Assembly (NCBI GenBank): GCA_963662405.2
Contig: CAXXKT010000003.1
Coordinates: forward strand, 288,001-352,000
DNA from: Syntrophales bacterium
Lineage (GTDB): Bacteria; Desulfobacterota; Syntrophia; Syntrophales; UBA2210
Length of the DNA stretch: 64,000 nucleotides
Reading direction: 5' to 3'
The notes beneath the pieces are model-generated. The model did not search any database. It was not told where the DNA came from and worked only from the letters and a program-made list of their open reading frames with translations. The position numbers and the translations under genes were made by a program. Below are positions 12,524 through 21,817 of this stretch, one piece after another; the stretch's first letter is position 1; every line of letters begins with the position of its first letter.

Positions 12524-14707
12524 ATGACCAAGAAATATTACGCACACAGCCTGGATGGAAGGCCCCTCGACGAATGGCAAACCCTTGAGGATCACCTAAG
12601 AAATGTTGCAGAGATGGCAGCGGATTTTGCCAGCTATTTTGGTTCACAAGCGTGGGGTGACATATTAGGGGCAAACCATGACCTTGGTAAAGGGATTCTT
12701 CCGTGGCAGGCATATTTAAGACAAGCAAATGGCATTATTGATGAGTTCTCTTCGTTTTATGAAGGTCATCCAACTCATGCTTTTAGTGGTGCCCAGTGGC
12801 TCGCTCGGAATTCAAAAGAATCTGGGAAATTGATGGCCTACTGTATCGCCGGACACCATGGAGGATTGCCGAACTGGAGCGACGTATCTGATGCAGCATT
12901 GGAAACAAGACTTGAGAAAGACTATCCTAAAGTCGAGATACCTTGCCCTGTTCCTGATTATCCTCGAGAACTACCTTTTTCATTTGATCCTGAACGGTTT
13001 GGGTTCCAATTGCAATTTTTTATCCGAATGCTATTTTCTTGCCTAGTAGATGCAGATTTCCTTGATACAGAAAACTCTCTGGATAGAACAAGAGCGGAAT
13101 GGCGTTCTTGCTATCCAAGGATTGATGAGCTCCATGAGAAATTCTGGATAAACTTTACAGCACTTCGTGGCGGATCTGACCAAACGACAAAAGTCAATCA
13201 ACAACGTGAGCATGTTCTCGAAGCGTGTTTACAGGCAGCTGAATCAGATCCAGGGGTGTTTTCGTTAACCGTTCCAACCGGTGGGGGTAAGACTTTGGCA
13301 TCGTTGGCCTTTGCGCTCAACCATGCGAAAAAGCATGAAATGAAGAGAAGAGTTATCTATGTCATTCCTTTTACCAGTATTATCGAGCAAAGTGCCAAAG
13401 TCTTTCGAGATATGCTTGGGGACGACGCTGTTTTGGAACATCACTGTAATTTTCTTCCTCATGACGCGGATTGGAAAACCAAGCTGGCTTCGGAAAATTG
13501 GGATGCCCCGGTCGTTGTTACAACAAATGTTCAGTTTTTCAATTCATTCCACTCGAACAGGCCAGCGAAGTGCCGTAAGCTTCACAATGTAACTAACAGT
13601 ATAATTATCTTCGATGAAGTTCAGGCTATTCCTGTTGAAAAACTGCAACCCTGCCTTGAGGTTATCAAAGAACTGTCGCTGAATTATGGTGTCACATCGG
13701 TCTTGTGTACGGCAACACAACCTGCAATTAAGTTTTCGGAAAATTTCAAATCAGGACTTAAAGATGTCCGAGAGATAATTCATGATGTTCCTGCGCTCTT
13801 TTCAGCATTGAAACGAACTGAAGAAAAATTTGTCGGAACGCTCAGCGTGCAGGAGGTCGCAGACAGACTTTTGGCACATGAACAAGTGTTATGTATTGTA
13901 AATACCCGTCAGCAAGCCATTGACATATTTAATGCTTTACCTGAGTCTGACTCGAACATTCATCTAAGTGCTTTGATGCACCCGGCGCACCGGACTGAAA
14001 AACTAGCTGAAATAAGAGCCAGATTGTCATGCCCGCAAAAGATGTCATGTCGAGTTGTCAGTACACAATTGATAGAAGCCGGAGTAGATGTCGATTTTCC
14101 CTGTGTCTTTCGTGCGGTAGCTGGAATTGACAGTATTGCTCAGGCTGCAGGTCGATGTAATCGCAATGGATTGAGCAAAACCCCGTGCGAGGTGTATGTC
14201 TTTAAACTTCCGGAGGAGTCTGCATGTTCCTTTTTTCGTCATGCTGCCGAGTCGGCTGCTAAGCTATTTGAGCCATTTACGGGAAGACTTACATCGCCTG
14301 AGTGCGTCCGGGAATATTTTAGTGATTTCTTCTGGAAGAATGAAGGTCGAATGGATGCGGATGGCATTATCGAAAATATGTGTCGCTCAGCTCAGTCGGG
14401 TGAGATTCAGTTCAAAGATATCGCACGCTTTCAGATGATTGTATCTGCAACGATTCCCATCATAGTGGCCTTACAAGAAGATGCCCTTGAATTGGTAAGA
14501 GCATTGGAATTTACGGAACACAAAGGGGGCATTTTAAGAAAACTACAAAAGTTTACGGTTCAGATATACCCCTATCAGTTTGAAGAGATAAAGGACTGGC
14601 TGGAGGACCCTGTGCCGGGAATTTGGGTGTTACGCTCGGAAGAACTTTATTCAAAGGCAACGGGTCTTAAATGTAAGCCGCCGGAAGGATATGCGTTTTT
14701 TGGATAA
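12524..14707 (+). CDS. cas3: CRISPR-associated nuclease/helicase Cas3
   Basis: YAHS, HDLGK HD domain, VPTGGGKT, DEVQ, QAAGRCNR. Confidence 0.96.
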   Translation: MTKKYYAHSLDGRPLDEWQTLEDHLRNVAEMAADFASYFGSQAWGDILGANHDLGKGILPWQAYLRQANGIIDEFSSFYEGHPTHAFSGAQWLARNSKESGKLMAYCIAGHHGGLPNWSDVSDAALETRLEKDYPKVEIPCPVPDYPRELPFSFDPERFGFQLQFFIRMLFSCLVDADFLDTENSLDRTRAEWRSCYPRIDELHEKFWINFTALRGGSDQTTKVNQQREHVLEACLQAAESDPGVFSLTVPTGGGKTLASLAFALNHAKKHEMKRRVIYVIPFTSIIEQSAKVFRDMLGDDAVLEHHCNFLPHDADWKTKLASENWDAPVVVTTNVQFFNSFHSNRPAKCRKLHNVTNSIIIFDEVQAIPVEKLQPCLEVIKELSLNYGVTSVLCTATQPAIKFSENFKSGLKDVREIIHDVPALFSALKRTEEKFVGTLSVQEVADRLLAHEQVLCIVNTRQQAIDIFNALPESDSNIHLSALMHPAHRTEKLAEIRARLSCPQKMSCRVVSTQLIEAGVDVDFPCVFRAVAGIDSIAQAAGRCNRNGLSKTPCEVYVFKLPEESACSFFRHAAESAAKLFEPFTGRLTSPECVREYFSDFFWKNEGRMDADGIIENMCRSAQSGEIQFKDIARFQMIVSATIPIIVALQEDALELVRALEFTEHKGGILRKLQKFTVQIYPYQFEEIKDWLEDPVPGIWVLRSEELYSKATGLKCKPPEGYAFFG

Positions 14708-17084
<2,377 letters not shown>

Positions 17085-17085
<1 letters not shown>

Positions 17086-17951
17086 TGAACGAGCCTATCA
17101 AAAACCGCTATGAGTTTGTTCTGCTCTTTGATGTGAAAAATGGAAACCCCAATGGTGATCCGGACGGTGGAAATATGCCCCGTATTGACCCGGAAACCGG
17201 GCATGGGATTACGACCGATGTCTGTTTAAAACGCAAGGTTCGAAACTATGTTGACTTGGTCCGGAACGGTGAAAAAGAATACAATATTTATATCAAGGAA
17301 AAAGCTGTTCTAACTGAAGCCAGAAAACCTGCCTACGAAGCGGTGGCAGATGAAAAAGAAAAATCGGCTAAAATCAGTAAGGCACGTGTGTGGATGTGTG
17401 AAAATTTCTTTGATGTTCGAACATTTGGAGCGGTTATGTCTACCAAAGAAAACAACTGTGGCCAGGTTCGGGGACCTGTGCAGTTCTCTTTTGCGCAGAG
17501 TATTGACCCTATTGTTCCTTTGGAGGCGAGTATTACCCGTATGGCAGTAGAAACTAGGAAAGAGGCCGACTCTCAGGATGGCGATAATAGAACAATGGGG
17601 CGTAAAGCATATATCCCTTATGGCCTGTATCGTGTTCACGGTTTCATTTCCGCTCCGTTGGCACGGCAGACTGGATTTTCCGAAGATGACCTTGAGGTTT
17701 TTTGGGATGCTCTCCGTAACATGTTTGACCATGATCGTTCTGCGGCTCGGGGGGAGATGGCTGCTCAGAAGCTTATTGTATTCAAACACGAAAGAGATCT
17801 TGGAAACGCTCCGGCCCACAAATTGTTTGATCTCGTTTCAATCAGACGTTCAACCGATGCCGATATCCCGGCCCGTGGATTTTCTGACTACGTTGTCGAG
17901 ATCGACAGAAACAGTGTTCCTCACGGTGTAACTATCGAAGAAAAGATTTAG
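17085..17951 (+). CDS. cas7c: Type I-C Cas7c/Csd2
   Basis: NPNGDPD, FFDVRTFGAVM, RTMGRK, HDRSAARG. Confidence 0.96.
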
Positions 17952-18010
17952 AGGAGCCCATAATAGTAGAACAAGGAATAACTTCCGTTTGAGGTTTTGG
18001 CGGTTCTCTC

Positions 18011-18661
18011 ATGAAGCGCTCCGGTCGATATGACATCTCAGGTCTTGCCGAAGCCCAGTTTGAGCCGGGTTCGCGAGGCCGTGTTCTGCGAAACCTTATC
18101 GGAGTAAAGAGCATCAGGGAAATGGATCGCATAGAAGGAGAGGCGCTTGTACGGACCTTTGGTGATCTTGTAACTATCTACGATGAGTCATACAGCTTCA
18201 GCGCCTCCGATCTATGTAAGATGCACAGGAGATGGCTCTCCGGAATCTACGAGTGGGCCGGTCAATACCGGCAGGTAAATCTCTCAAAGGGGGATTTTAC
18301 CTTCGCAGGCGCTCATTTGATCCCCGGACTGATGGCCGATTTTGAAAGCCGTTATCTTGCAGTTTATACGCCCTGTCGGTTTTCGAAAAGAAAAGACCTG
18401 GCGCAGGCCCTTGCCGTAGTACATGTGGAATTGCTTCTGGTTCACCCTTTCAGGGAAGGCAACGGTCGAATTGCACGCACTCTGGCATCACTCATGGCGC
18501 TTCAGGCAAAATTGCCTCCGCTGGATTTTGGTACACTGAGAGGCAAAAATAAACAGAGGTATTTTGAAGCCGTTCAACTTGGACTGGATAGGGATTATGT
18601 ACCGATGGAGAAGATTTTTGACGAGATAATAGATAATACTCTGCAGTTACCGGGCGGCTGA
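18011..18661 (+). CDS. Fic-domain protein (putative AMPylating toxin)
   Basis: Complete canonical motif HPFREGNGRIAR; YEWAGQYR flap region. Confidence 0.93.
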   Translation: MKRSGRYDISGLAEAQFEPGSRGRVLRNLIGVKSIREMDRIEGEALVRTFGDLVTIYDESYSFSASDLCKMHRRWLSGIYEWAGQYRQVNLSKGDFTFAGAHLIPGLMADFESRYLAVYTPCRFSKRKDLAQALAVVHVELLLVHPFREGNGRIARTLASLMALQAKLPPLDFGTLRGKNKQRYFEAVQLGLDRDYVPMEKIFDEIIDNTLQLPGG

Positions 18662-18823
18662 TTTTTTCCTTGTCTCTTTGTTCGTCTGGAGCAGATCACT
18701 AAAGGCAGAGAGGGGCACACCTTCGATTGCTGACGAAGACGCCACGTTCATGACGATTGCGGCTTTTCGCTCAGCGGGGTTTTTAAGATAGGGATTTGTC
18801 TGCGTGAGGTTTTTCTTTTTCAT
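18647..18823 (-). CDS. Putative Fic antitoxin (58 aa), convergent with fic
   Basis: MKKKNL...VASSSAIEGV contains (S/T)xxxE(G/N); well-formed promoter directly upstream; 15-nt 3' overlap with fic. Confidence 0.72.
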   Translation of the reverse strand: MKKKNLTQTNPYLKNPAERKAAIVMNVASSSAIEGVPLSAFSDLLQTNKETRKKSAAR

Positions 18824-18829
18824 GATGCT

Positions 18830-18858
18830 ACTGTACCAGAACACGGCTGTTTTATCAA
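18830..18858 (-). promoter_or_regulatory. Sigma70-type promoter for a leaderless antitoxin mRNA
   Basis: Minus strand TTGATA-N17-TACAGT with TGn extension; the A of ATG is the 7th base after the -10 hexamer. Confidence 0.65.
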
Positions 18859-18910
18859 AGGGAAATAATTGGATTAACATTTTGAAATAACTATCTAAAA
18901 TGGTAAGAAT

Positions 18911-19543
18911 ATGTATACTGAAGACGATCTTCTCCCCCTGTCCGCCCTGCAGCACCTTATCTTCTGCGAGCGGCAGTGCGCCCTGATTCACATCGAGCAG
19001 GCGTGGGCCGAGAATCTCTTCACCGCCGAAGGGAGGGTCATGCACGAGCGTGTCCACGAAGAGGGGAGGGAATCGAGAGGCGATATCCGCGTTGAACATG
19101 GGCTCTCTCTCCGATCACTGCGGCTGGGGCTGATCGGGAAAGCGGACGTCGTAGAATTCCACCGATGGAAAGGTGGCTCCTGGTTGCCGTTTCCCGTGGA
19201 ATACAAACGAGGCAAGCCGAAGAAGGACAACGGCGACCGGGTGCAGCTCTGTGCACAGGCGCTCTGTCTTGAAGAGATGCTGAACATCGCGGTGCCCGAG
19301 GGTGCTCTTTTTTATGGGAAAAACCGACGCCGTGCGGAGGTTGTTTTTGACATCCCATTGCGGAAAGAAACGGAAGATGCCGCGATACGGCTGCACGAAC
19401 TGATTGCATCCGGGCGGACGCCGAAACCGGTCTATACGAAGAGGTGTGATGCCTGCTCGCTGGCGGCTCTATGCCTGCCGAAGACGGTGGGAAAGAGAAG
19501 GACCGTGCAGCGTTATTTGTCGGGGGTGATGCGAGAGCTATGA
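18911..19543 (+). CDS. cas4: CRISPR-associated exonuclease Cas4
   Basis: FCERQCAL, ADVVEF, VEYKRG, QLCAQ and CDACSL...C Fe-S cysteines. Confidence 0.96.
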   Translation: MYTEDDLLPLSALQHLIFCERQCALIHIEQAWAENLFTAEGRVMHERVHEEGRESRGDIRVEHGLSLRSLRLGLIGKADVVEFHRWKGGSWLPFPVEYKRGKPKKDNGDRVQLCAQALCLEEMLNIAVPEGALFYGKNRRRAEVVFDIPLRKETEDAAIRLHELIASGRTPKPVYTKRCDACSLAALCLPKTVGKRRTVQRYLSGVMREL

Positions 19544-20571
19544 AGCGACACCTCAATACCCTTTTTGTCACGACGCAGGGGGCCTATCTCGCCAAGGAGG
19601 GGGAGACGGCCGTGGTGAAGGTGGAAAAAGAGATTCGCCTTCGCGTTCCGATCCACACGATCGGTGGAATTGTCTGTTTCGGTCAGGTATCCATCAGCCC
19701 GTTCCTCATGGGTTTCTGCGCGGAGCGTGATGTTGCGATCAGTTTCCTGTCGGAGCATGGACGATTCCTGGCGCGGGTACAGGGGCCGGTTTCGGGAAAT
19801 GTCCTGCTCCGCAGAGAGCAGTATCGACGTGCCGATGATCCTGCTTCATCCGCTGAAATAGCGAAGGCCGTCGTGACCGGCAAGATCGCCAACTGCCGAA
19901 CGGTTCTCCAGCGGGCGTTGCGGGACCACGGCGACAAGCCGGGAACGGATGAGATCGAACAGGCCTCGCGGAGGCTTGCCGCGTCCTTGAAATCCCTTGC
20001 CCGTGAGGGATCTTTGGACGCGGTGCGCGGGATCGAAGGGGATGCGGCGAACAGGTACTTCGGTGTCTTCGATCATCTCATCACCTCACAGAAAAAGGAT
20101 TTCTCTTTTCATGAGAGAAGCCGCCGTCCGCCCCTGGACAAGGTGAACTGCCTCCTGTCCTTTTTGTACACCCTCGTCATGCATGATGTCCGCTCCGCCC
20201 TCGAATCGGTAGGCCTGGACCCGGCGGTCGGATTCCTGCACCGGGACCGCCCGGGGAGACCGAGTCTCGCTCTTGACATGATGGAGGAGTTCAGACCGTT
20301 CATGGCCGATCGGATGGCACTCTCTTTGATCAATCTGTCACAGGTCCGAAAGAAGGGGTTTGATACAACCGAATCGGGCGCTGTCCTCATGGACGACGAG
20401 ACACGGAAGTCCCTCCTGATTGCCTATCAGAAACGGAAGCAGGACGAGATCGTACACCCCTTTCTCAATGAAAAGGTGACAGTCGGGCTCCTCTTTCACA
20501 CGCAGGTCCTGCTGCTGGCCCGGTATCTGAGGGGCGATCTGGACGGATATCCGCCCTTTATCTGGAAATAG
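19540..20571 (+). CDS. cas1: Type I-C Cas1
   Basis: LNTLFVTTQGAYL, GNVLLRREQY, RGIEG, GFLHRDRPGR, DMMEE; ATGA overlap with cas4. Confidence 0.97.
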   Translation: MKRHLNTLFVTTQGAYLAKEGETAVVKVEKEIRLRVPIHTIGGIVCFGQVSISPFLMGFCAERDVAISFLSEHGRFLARVQGPVSGNVLLRREQYRRADDPASSAEIAKAVVTGKIANCRTVLQRALRDHGDKPGTDEIEQASRRLAASLKSLAREGSLDAVRGIEGDAANRYFGVFDHLITSQKKDFSFHERSRRPPLDKVNCLLSFLYTLVMHDVRSALESVGLDPAVGFLHRDRPGRPSLALDMMEEFRPFMADRMALSLINLSQVRKKGFDTTESGAVLMDDETRKSLLIAYQKRKQDEIVHPFLNEKVTVGLLFHTQVLLLARYLRGDLDGYPPFIWK

Positions 20572-20582
20572 GAGCGAAGGGT

Positions 20583-20873
20583 ATGTTTGTGCTTGTCAGT
20601 TATGATGTGGCGACAGTCGAAAAAGGGGGGCAGCGTCGCCTGCGCCGGGTGGCGAAGGCGTGTCAGGATTATGGCCAGCGTGTCCAGTACTCCGTTTTTG
20701 AGTGTATCGTCGATCCGGCGCAATGGACGATGCTCCGGCAGCGGCTGATCAGCGAGATCAATCTCGAATCGGACAGTCTGCGGTTCTATTACCTGGGGTC
20801 GAATTGGAAGCGCCGTGTCGAGCATGTGGGCGCCAAAGAAGGCCTTGATCAGGAAGGGCCGCTCATTGCCTGA
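20583..20873 (+). CDS. cas2: Cas2
   Basis: VLVSYDV, GQRVQYSVFEC, DSLRFY. Confidence 0.97.
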   Translation: MFVLVSYDVATVEKGGQRRLRRVAKACQDYGQRVQYSVFECIVDPAQWTMLRQRLISEINLESDSLRFYYLGSNWKRRVEHVGAKEGLDQEGPLIA

Positions 20874-21057: not shown

Positions 21058-21817
21058 GTCGCCCCCCTCGCGGGGGCGTGGATTGAAACATGTCTTCAAG
21101 GGCTTGCCGTAACCCATCCAACCGTCGCCCCCCTCGCGGGGGCGTGGATTGAAACATGATGTTCATGTCAGATTTGCCTTTGACCATAGTCGCCCCCCTC
21201 GCGGGGGCGTGGATTGAAACCTCGACCGATGGCGAAAGGATGGGGACCGACCGATGGTCGCCCCCCTCGCGGGGGCGTGGATTGAAACGACAACTGCGAC
21301 TACTGGCCCGTCCCGAAGGGCAAGTCGCCCCCCTCGCGGGGGCGTGGATTGAAACATGACGGGGTTTCTTACGAACTGCGCGAGACCGAAGTCGCCCCCC
21401 TCGCGGGGGCGTGGATTGAAACACGCCATCGAAGTCGCTTGCGACCTCGAATTCTGTCGCCCCCCTCGCGGGGGCGTGGATTGAAACTCAACCCCTCGTA
21501 CTTGCATTTCGGACACCCAACGTCGCCCCCCTCGCGGGGGCGTGGATTGAAACATCAGTCACCAGTCCCCGTGCCGTTCCGTTGCTGTCGCCCCCCTCGC
21601 GGGGGCGTGGATTGAAACGTACATCAAGCCCTGTGTATGATGGTGGCTTGAGTCGCCCCCCTCGCGGGGGCGTGGATTGAAACCGGGATATCCTGGTCGA
21701 CGGAATGAAGGGCGACTGGGTCGCCCCCCTCGCGGGGGCGTGGATTGAAACCTAAATCAAGGCTTTTTTATGCTCGATAAATCGGGTCGCCCCCCTTGCG
21801 GGGGTGTGGATTGAAAG
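21058..21817 (+). CRISPR. Type I-C CRISPR array: 12 repeats of GTCGCCCCCCTCGCGGGGGCGTGGATTGAAAC, 11 spacers of 33-36 nt
   Basis: Repeats start at 21058, 21124, 21189, 21257, 21324, 21391, 21456, 21522, 21587, 21652, 21720, 21786 (last has 3 substitutions); possible degenerate 13th repeat at 21851. Confidence 0.99.

Follow-up and report, generated by a model that had tools for sequence, protein, structure and literature searches.

The type I-C CRISPR-Cas (short palindromic repeats, clustered and regularly interspaced, and associated genes) locus of a Syntrophales bacterium (Bacteria; Desulfobacterota; Syntrophia; Syntrophales; UBA2210; GenBank assembly GCA_963662405.2) raises the question of why two extra genes are found in its middle and what they do there. 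We have analyzed a window of 64,000 nucleotides (nt), by which we mean the whole stretch from position 288,001 to position 352,000 on the forward strand of contig CAXXKT010000003.1. The locus is complete on the + strand of this window, where Pfam and NCBIfam identify cas3-cas5c-cas8c-cas7-cas4-cas1-cas2, followed by a CRISPR array. The gap of 960 nt between cas7 and cas4 is occupied by a Fic gene, which begins 59 nt past the end of cas7 on the same strand, and by a small open reading frame (ORF) in antisense orientation. In its gene arrangement the pair is a new form of class I Fic toxin-antitoxin (TA) module, and its antitoxin family is uncurated; it probably represents a type II TA cassette of the class I Fic kind that nests in defence operons, and not a dedicated component of the cas locus.

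The Fic protein of 216 amino acids (aa) contains the active-site motif HPFREGNGRIAR, whose residues H145-P-F-R-E-G-N-G-R-I-A-R156 correspond to the canonical HxFx(D/E)GNGRxxR, and H145, F147, R148, E149, G150, N151, G152, R153 and R156 are invariant across 52 Fic homologues. A regular expression run over the whole protein found no internal [ST]xxxE[GN] motif. Among the chains of solved structure, those nearest to it belong to class I toxins: VbhT, at 4.8e-12, and 8wt0 ('cell filamentation protein Fic', 205 aa), the latter matching over its full length (1e-11). These features are those expected of a class I-type toxin, i.e., a predicted adenosine monophosphate (AMP) transferase with an intact active site but without an inhibitory helix of its own. 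We treat this Fic as a separate subfamily, because its scores against the NCBIfam equivalogs for E. coli Fic (PRK10347; 55.3 vs 181 bits) and VbhT (50.7 vs 800) are far under their cut-offs. The gene is present as a single copy in the genome, and its nearest metagenomic homologues show 65-73% identity.

Since gene callers gave only five homologues of the small ORF, the DNA around Fic relatives was inspected directly, using 80 loci from one-genome-per-species contigs and 80 from metagenomes (Fic relatives of at most 64% identity), together 1.5 megabases (Mb). At least 170 nt follow the Fic stop codon in 150 of these loci, and in 136 of the 150 a profile made from 75 small ORFs (alignment A2) finds a match on the opposite strand at the Fic stop, with E<1e-3 in 130 cases; 12 of the 14 loci that lack a match contain the most distant Fic relatives (29-36% identity). 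This profile produced a single off-site match among the 33,706 six-frame ORFs of the same 1.5 Mb of homologous loci, and in the window it matched this ORF alone among 1,468. A stricter filter, which asks for the motif and for an ATG start, still leaves an ORF of 38-80 aa in 122 of the 160 loci, and in 106 of these 122 homologous pairs the 3' ends of the two genes overlap, by a median of 29 nt. The convergent ORF is also present in all nine class I Fic loci from relatives of the window genome. The convergent layout is the rule for the whole Fic subfamily, because it is shown by 136 of the 150 loci, and a same-strand upstream ORF of at least 35 aa with [ST]xxxE[GN], the published position of FicA, is found in only six of 139.

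Within alignment A2, Ser30 and Glu34 of the inhibitory motif (S/T)xxxE(G/N) are invariant over the 75 sequences, although many gammaproteobacterial members have E-T-G in place of E-G, and the amino-acid pattern of S30, E34 and the TNPYL block is kept despite the divergence of the DNA. The program's ORF call around the antitoxin is longer (18647..19099, 150 aa); we place the true start at the ATG at 18823, because every homologue begins at this MKKK position and because a promoter-like site ends 6 nt before it. RefSeq, where 8 of 10 sequences were found, has it in Yersinia, Salmonella, Proteus, Serratia and others, under the name 'hypothetical protein' in every case, and seven of eight antitoxin clusters are labelled only 'hypothetical' or 'uncharacterised', cluster 7 carrying in addition the UniRef name 'Flagellar biosynthesis anti-sigma factor FlgM'. 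No curated family in Pfam or NCBIfam matches the window antitoxin. When the 75 members were compared with Pfam, the best E was 0.014, to an unrelated family, and one of the 75 matched Fic_N at 0.033; against NCBIfam nothing was better than 0.005, and no solved antitoxin chain in the PDB matches the small protein at E<=10. For the inhibitory segment, hhalign gives an alignment over 22 columns to the internal inhibitory helix of a class II-like Fic (E 0.0012). Judged by this conservation, the small ORF is a genuine conserved partner of Fic. Past the inhibitory helix the antitoxins end in variable, basic tails with much Ser, Arg and Lys, whose codons fall within the part of the gene shared with the 3' end of Fic (A2); such tails could be disordered degradation tags, or they could merely be constrained by the overlap.

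The complex of the two proteins was modelled using a Fic alignment of 52 rows (A3; 51 used) and the 75 rows of A2. The model reached an interaction prediction score from aligned errors (ipSAE) of 0.93 in three of three runs, against 0.01 for the best of three controls; of 157 solved complexes, 116 attain the mark used for this score, as do 2 of 215 mismatched pairs. The runs share at least 91% of their contacts, and the predicted local distance difference test (pLDDT) of the partner is at least 82. In the model, antitoxin residues 29-34 (SSSAIE) contact G150, G152, R153, R156, T157 and S160 of Fic, the placement of S30 on R153 and R156 having the lowest expected error, and the N-terminal TNPYL block contacts Fic residues 54-60 and 164. 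Sequence and model together point to a small protein that would supply, in trans, the inhibitory helix at the Fic active site.

Expression signals in the DNA are consistent with separate control of the two genes. A promoter scan of 17700-19100 detected four promoter-like sites in all, none of which lies on the + strand ahead of Fic within 17700-18010. Read-through from upstream is a probable source of toxin, because of this lack of a promoter-like site and because Fic is co-oriented with the surrounding genes. The -35 and -10 elements of the promoter-like site ahead of the antitoxin are conserved in four loci (the window and the relatives G005, G016 and G014), and no Shine-Dalgarno sequence precedes the antitoxin ATG of the window. 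Among 77 homologues of the TNPYL type, a TGnTAnAAT signal occupies positions -14 to -7 (G at -14 in 51%, T at -12 in 57%, A at -11 in 65%, A at -9 in 56%, T at -7 in 57%). As the extended -10 stands at a fixed distance from the ATG, a leaderless messenger RNA (mRNA) is predicted, and the sequences suggest that this is how the antitoxin is translated. A purine-rich, Shine-Dalgarno-like signal is found instead in 43 gammaproteobacterial antitoxin genes of the 'ASSTAIETG' type, and two expression styles can hence be distinguished, an extended -10 six nt from the ATG in the TNPYL type and a purine run in the ASSTAIETG type. We also would like to mention an 11-nt perfect inverted repeat, GCCGTGTTCTG / CAGAACACGGC, with one arm in the 5' part of Fic (18078-18088) and the other in the spacer of the antitoxin promoter (18837-18847); by a rough estimate this is about the size expected by chance in 2.1 kb.

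Much of this had been proposed in the initial annotation, which was made from the sequence alone. Coordinates, Pfam and the regular expression confirm its Fic gene between cas7 and cas4, with a full HPFREGNGRIAR motif and no internal inhibitory motif, and its 58-aa antisense ORF, with the start at 18823, SSAIEG and a tail-to-tail overlap of 15 nt, is correct in every detail. It had read Fic as a toxin of the class I type, blocked by an SxxxEG protein acting in trans, which agrees with the conservation, the invariant Ser and Glu and the complex model, and two of the checks that it had suggested, conservation of the small ORF (136 of 150 testable loci) and modelling of the complex (0.93 vs 0.01), came out in its favour. 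A toxin without its own promoter next to a separately driven antitoxin likewise fits the promoter-like sites. What has to be given up is the idea that the convergent layout is peculiar to this locus, as it is the standard one in the subfamily. Positions of the features are listed in Table 1.

Table 1. Features of the Fic cassette and of the type I-C locus around it (window coordinates).
Feature	Position	Strand	Basis
Fic toxin gene, 216 aa	18011-18661	+	Pfam Fic 2.9e-18
FIC active-site motif HPFREGNGRIAR, H145 to R156	18443-18478	+	sequence
Antitoxin gene, 58 aa, MKKKNLTQTNPYLK...SSSAIEG..., basic tail	18647-18823	-	homologue alignment
Codons of S30-S-A-I-E34-G35, (S/T)xxxE(G/N) inhibitory motif	18719-18736	-	sequence and alignment A2
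Tail-to-tail overlap of Fic and antitoxin genes, 15 nt, stop codons included	18647-18661	.	ORF coordinates
Antitoxin promoter-like site, TTGATA, 17 nt, (TG)G TACAGT, ending 6 nt before ATG	18830-18858	-	consensus match
Promoter-like site TTAACA, 16 nt, TAAAAT (10/12), before cas4 ATG at 18911	18874-18901	+	consensus match alone
Weak terminator-like hairpin and T run, about 100 nt past Fic stop, inside antitoxin gene (antisense)	18765-18779	+	tentative
cas3	12524-14707	+	Pfam/NCBIfam
cas5c	14720-15358	+	Pfam/NCBIfam
cas8c (csd1)	15334-17085	+	Pfam/NCBIfam
cas7 (csd2)	17085-17951	+	NCBIfam type I-C Cas7/Csd2, 2.9e-119, 397.7 bits vs cut-off 182
cas4	18911-19543	+	Pfam/NCBIfam
cas1	19471-20571	+	Pfam/NCBIfam
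cas2	20583-20873	+	Pfam/NCBIfam
CRISPR array, 12 repeats GTCGCCCCCCTCGCGGGGGCGTGGATTGAAAC	~21058-21817	+	repeat analysis

The accessible parts of two sources describe FicTA antitoxins as encoded immediately upstream of the toxin and in one operon with it (PMC5033356, PMC13327609). The pair studied here resembles the class I FicTA systems (VbhT/VbhA, EcFicT/YhfG, YeFicTA, PaFicTA and Fic-1/AntF) in having a small Fic with a canonical motif and no helix of its own, and a partner of about 55-60 aa with (S/T)xxxE(G/N), predicted to bind on the motif arginines; the 58-aa antitoxin falls within the range in which FicA, VbhA and YhfG are recognized, this motif in a protein of ~50-80 aa. It differs from them in that the antitoxin is downstream, convergent and 3'-overlapping, with its own predicted promoter, in the window and at 136 of the 150 loci alike, where class I FicT and VbhT have an upstream-antitoxin operon, and in that no chain or family of VbhA, YhfG or AntF is matched by this antitoxin. 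A small neutralizer encoded downstream of a Fic toxin is known in the case of SoFic, which according to the accessible text is neutralized by the small protein AS1 (PMC12249575), and the present pair is similar in this regard. However, SoFic, at ~360 aa, is longer than this Fic and has its own internal helix; it is the long Fic genes in the cas loci of relatives that match the SoFic model (3.5e-31).

The closest catalogued counterpart is the PADLOC candidate PDC-S04, from a 'guilt-by-embedding' study (Payne et al., 2024 preprint), with which the pair has in common, as far as the available part of that work goes, a full-length Fic model and the nesting in other operons: residues 6-208 of Fic align with profile positions 3-203 of 205 in model PDLC04839 (7.2e-70). 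PDC-S04 is catalogued as a single gene and the convergent antitoxin is not included, whereas here there is a conserved second gene. The main text of the preprint, its supplementary tables apart, mentions neither Fic nor PDC-S04, cas7, cas4 or CRISPR-Cas hosts. Neither a convergent Fic antitoxin nor a link between Fic and cas genes turned up in our literature search, which covered listings and the passages cited here, Harms et al. 2015 (on YeFicTA and PaFicTA) lying outside that search. The initial annotation had considered the pair the best candidate here for an undescribed system; the convergent antitoxin has no report that we could find, but the Fic family was already on record as PDC-S04.

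A different kind of parallel is offered by CreTA, a pair of RNAs in which Cascade, directed by a CRISPR-like RNA, represses the toxin. Like such cas-safeguarding modules, the Fic cassette is a TA pair located inside a type I cas locus. It differs from CreTA in that it consists of two proteins and has no repeat-like element in its vicinity: a search for CreA-like repeats, using the 14-nt 3' part of the repeat with up to three mismatches, gave no match in 17900-18950, more degenerate repeats not having been sought. According to the accessible part of one report, cells may pay a price for losing a type I cas locus that has a TA pair within it (PMC10910872); Fic does not occur in that text, its sole 'fic' match being the surname of an author.

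How specific the association with cas genes is can be judged from the neighbourhoods of the homologous pairs. Among the 160 loci, all 64 with at least 3 kb on each side were scanned with PADLOC (threshold E<=1e-15) over their four nearest ORFs, and 32 of them gave a match. Cas neighbours are present in three of the 64. In a locus of Bacteroidota (L057), a type I-B system has the order cas1b-cas2-cas4b-Fic-antitoxin-cas8b-cas7b-cas5-cas3 on a single strand; in a gammaproteobacterium (L058) the type I-E order is cas3e-Fic-antitoxin-cas8e, with the Fic frame split in two, which may be an assembly error or decay; and in L026 a Cas3g-like fragment adjoins the pair. A 1.4-kb metagenome contig (L112) opens, at 1-165, with sequence like a type I-E CRISPR repeat and with a piece of cas7 that is truncated into the start of Fic; the ORF that follows the pair there (1073-1407) we take to be RhuM-like. 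The other hosts are type I restriction-modification (RM) systems (L001, L007, L021, L033, L064, L073, L089, L100), SspC|SspD (L119) and helicase/methylase, DISARM-like systems (L034, L048). Both flanks derive from one defence system in seven of the 64 loci (L057 at cas4b|cas8b, L058 at cas3|cas8e, L064, L100, L119, L048 and L034), and where the neighbours are RM, cas, Ssp or Drm-like genes (16 loci), Fic and the defence gene next to it point the same way in 14. Given this variety of host operons, the cassette nests in defence operons generally. The cas linkage is recurrent, with independent insertions in types I-C, I-B and I-E, but it is a minority context and not cas-specific. The cas association claimed initially thus stands as a recurrent one, conserved also in two related genomes, but it does not describe the usual context, which includes cas genes in only three of the 64 loci. 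An earlier census by tblastn with the Cas proteins of the window, which found cas neighbours in one of 80 genome loci and one of 80 metagenome loci, was rejected because it missed the non-I-C cases later found by PADLOC. As regards marks of transposition, flanking duplications and inverted repeats amounted only to short, chance-sized matches.

In related genomes the same junction has a varied content. A 3.5-kb DNA query matched 17 of 40 other related genomes, and the cas loci of 13 of these were compared (all except G009, G028, G032 and G035); junction contents are given for all of the 13 apart from G040. The order cas7-Fic-antitoxin-cas4 recurs in G005 (Fic 73%, Cas7 55% over a partial sequence and Cas4 75% identical to the window) and in G016 (65%, 64% and 76%). 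G014, in which the cas genes are on the - strand, has an intact 59-aa antitoxin with a conserved promoter (L190 2559-2738, +) in a cas7|cas4 gap of 430 nt without Fic; here the toxin is lost and the antitoxin retained. The cas7|cas4 junctions of G007 and G012 contain instead a longer Fic (348-372 aa), which has an SSNRIEG helix of its own, and a long Fic sits at the cas4|cas1 junction of G037 and G034, the latter with an MNT/HepT pair in addition. Other cargo at cas7|cas4 comprises a 281-aa Bro-N protein in G023 and G019 (PADLOC PDC-S13, 5.8e-114) and a 406-aa YhcG/DUF1016 nuclease in G031 (PDC-S02, 2.8e-121), the latter genome having a class I Fic-antitoxin pair just past its CRISPR array; in G027 and G036 the junction is empty. 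The modules on the two sides of the junction also have different affinities. The Cas1 and Cas2 proteins of the relatives are 70-91% identical to those of the window (85-91% in G007, G016 and G023), but their interference modules 42-81%, and Cas8c ranges from 27 to 74%, the nearest interference module being that of G023 (Cas7 81%, Cas8c 74%). The G+C content is 0.42-0.47 in cas3-cas7, ~0.50 in Fic and 0.56-0.60 in cas4-cas2, where it is similar to that of the flanking genome. These steps in composition, together with the uneven identities, argue for shuffling of modules at the cas7|cas4 junction and suggest that the interference module of the window was exchanged there. The interference/adaptation junction is a hot spot for cargo and recombination in this bacterial order.

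According to the reading that we favour, the 58-aa protein would provide in trans the inhibitory helix that Fic itself is without. Its S30xxxE34 segment would be laid over both FIC-motif arginines and would, judging from VbhA and VbhT, force adenosine triphosphate (ATP) into a non-productive pose, thus keeping the toxin silent. The target of the free toxin would be GyrB/ParE, as with FicT, VbhT and Fic-1. The antitoxin would be read convergently from its own extended -10 promoter, probably without a leader and across the 3' end of the toxin gene, and the toxin would be made by read-through from the host operon, here cas3-cas7. The cassette would have been kept at the interference/adaptation junction while the cas genes diverged, and, like other nested TA or abortive-infection cassettes, it would either stabilize the locus that carries it or arrest the cell once the supply of antitoxin fails. 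It is by analogy that we infer the AMPylation target, the toxicity and the stabilizing or abortive role.

Several observations weigh against this interpretation. The leaderless start of the antitoxin and the read-through of the toxin are inferred from consensus matches alone, and the score of the complex may echo the solved FicT-FicA complexes instead of being an independent prediction. In the only published test of a PDC-S04 gene that we came across, the gene gave no measurable phage defence in its native host, according to the accessible part of the report (10.1101/2024.12.20.629700). A Fic-family part is present at one of the two junctions in seven of the 13 relatives' loci, and an eighth has the pair beyond the array, so that describing the cassette as not cas-specific leaves unexplained the repeated presence of two unrelated classes of Fic at the interference/adaptation junction. 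Finally, the toxin is missing in G014, where only the antitoxin is left, and its frame is broken in L058; the toxin is therefore dispensable.

The explanation that comes nearest to this reading, a back-up role of the kind put forward in the initial annotation, ties the pair to the cas genes themselves. Strong cas transcription would raise the level of toxin mRNA and lower that of the antitoxin, by collision or antisense pairing at the 3' ends, and cas induction or phage shut-off would lead to dormancy mediated by Fic; alternatively, cells that lose the locus would be killed. The position of Fic, co-oriented with cas genes just behind cas7 and lacking a promoter-like site, would suit such a back-up, as would the overlapping 3' ends in 106 of 122 pairs, the retention of the insertion in G005 and G016 with a divergence similar to that of the cas genes, the independent insertions in types I-B (L057) and I-E (L058), the cas7 fragment fused upstream of Fic in L112 and the long Fic genes of four relatives at the same junctions. 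We nevertheless regard it as unlikely: cas neighbours are found in only three of the 64 scanned loci, no CRISPR-repeat-like element is near the cassette, and the same architecture occurs in RM, Ssp and other operons, so that any coupling would be to transcription of the host operon in general and not to cas. A wider form of this idea, in which the cassette has a hybrid type I/type II TA logic and acts as a sensor of its host operon, with a toxin made by read-through only, a leaderless convergent antitoxin, and collision or antisense pairing setting their ratio, seems to us somewhat better placed, though still speculative. If it is true, hyper-induction of the defence operon, or a phage that blocks antitoxin synthesis, would make the cell dormant through Fic, giving it a second line of defence after CRISPR or restriction.

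The opposite view, that a chance insertion brought a mobile TA pair into a recombination hot spot, where it affects neither defence nor the stability of the locus, draws on the G+C steps and the shuffling of modules across the junction, on the unrelated cargo of the relatives (Bro-N, YhcG, MNT/HepT and long Fic), on the orphan antitoxin of G014 and on the broken Fic of L058. Yet both ORFs and the promoter have remained intact over ~30% protein divergence, half of the scanned loci have defence neighbours, and Fic points the same way as its defence neighbour in 14 of the 16 loci with RM, cas, Ssp or Drm-like genes, and we therefore give pure hitch-hiking a poor chance. Fic might also be a regulator that AMPylates a Cas or other defence protein and so switches interference or adaptation, the small protein being its off-switch. 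In this order, Fic genes of two classes are found repeatedly where the interference module meets the adaptation module, and some Fic-antitoxin complexes are reported, in the part of the source available, to be deAMPylases (PMC13327609). As the same Fic family resides in operons without Cas proteins, and its nearest characterized relatives poison topoisomerases, such a role appears very improbable; nor did any sign of contact with a Cas protein come up, no search for one having been made. Hardest to credit is the proposal that the small ORF is an antisense RNA or a chance frame and that Fic is regulated otherwise. The five homologues from gene callers and the lack of a matching curated family would fit it, but S30, E34 and TNPYL are conserved in spite of DNA divergence, RefSeq calls the gene in many Enterobacterales, and the complex model speaks for a protein.

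If the pair is a TA cassette that nests in defence operons, as we prefer to think, the widespread single-gene candidate PDC-S04 is really a cassette of two genes, whose antidote has been left unannotated or called 'hypothetical protein', which bears on how PDC-S04 is cloned and tested. To a family described, in the accessible sources, as upstream-antitoxin operons, it adds a convergent, 3'-overlapping and probably leaderless antitoxin, and it raises the question of control at the RNA level. It also adds CRISPR-Cas operons, from three subtypes of type I, to the known hosts of 'embedded' defence cargo, and marks the interference/adaptation junction as a hot spot for cargo and recombination.

Some features of the surrounding DNA deserve mention. 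Because a second promoter-like site precedes cas4, the cassette may split the operon into cas3-cas7-Fic and cas4-cas2, and the site at 18874-18901, which belongs to a block partly conserved in G005 and G016, could drive cas4-cas1-cas2 separately. Terminator-like sites are not above the level of shuffled sequences (2 found vs a mean of 1.4). Four relatives have the long Fic inside their I-C loci, at L179 4968-6014, L180 7148-8266, L181 6800-7852 and L182 6265-7311 (-), and in G012 (L180) a duplicated 5' fragment of cas4 (aa 1-85) ahead of the long Fic resembles an insertion scar. Other junction cargo is located at L186 2337-3182 (-), L187 2351-3196 (-), L183 12359-13579 (-) and L181 8082-8745.

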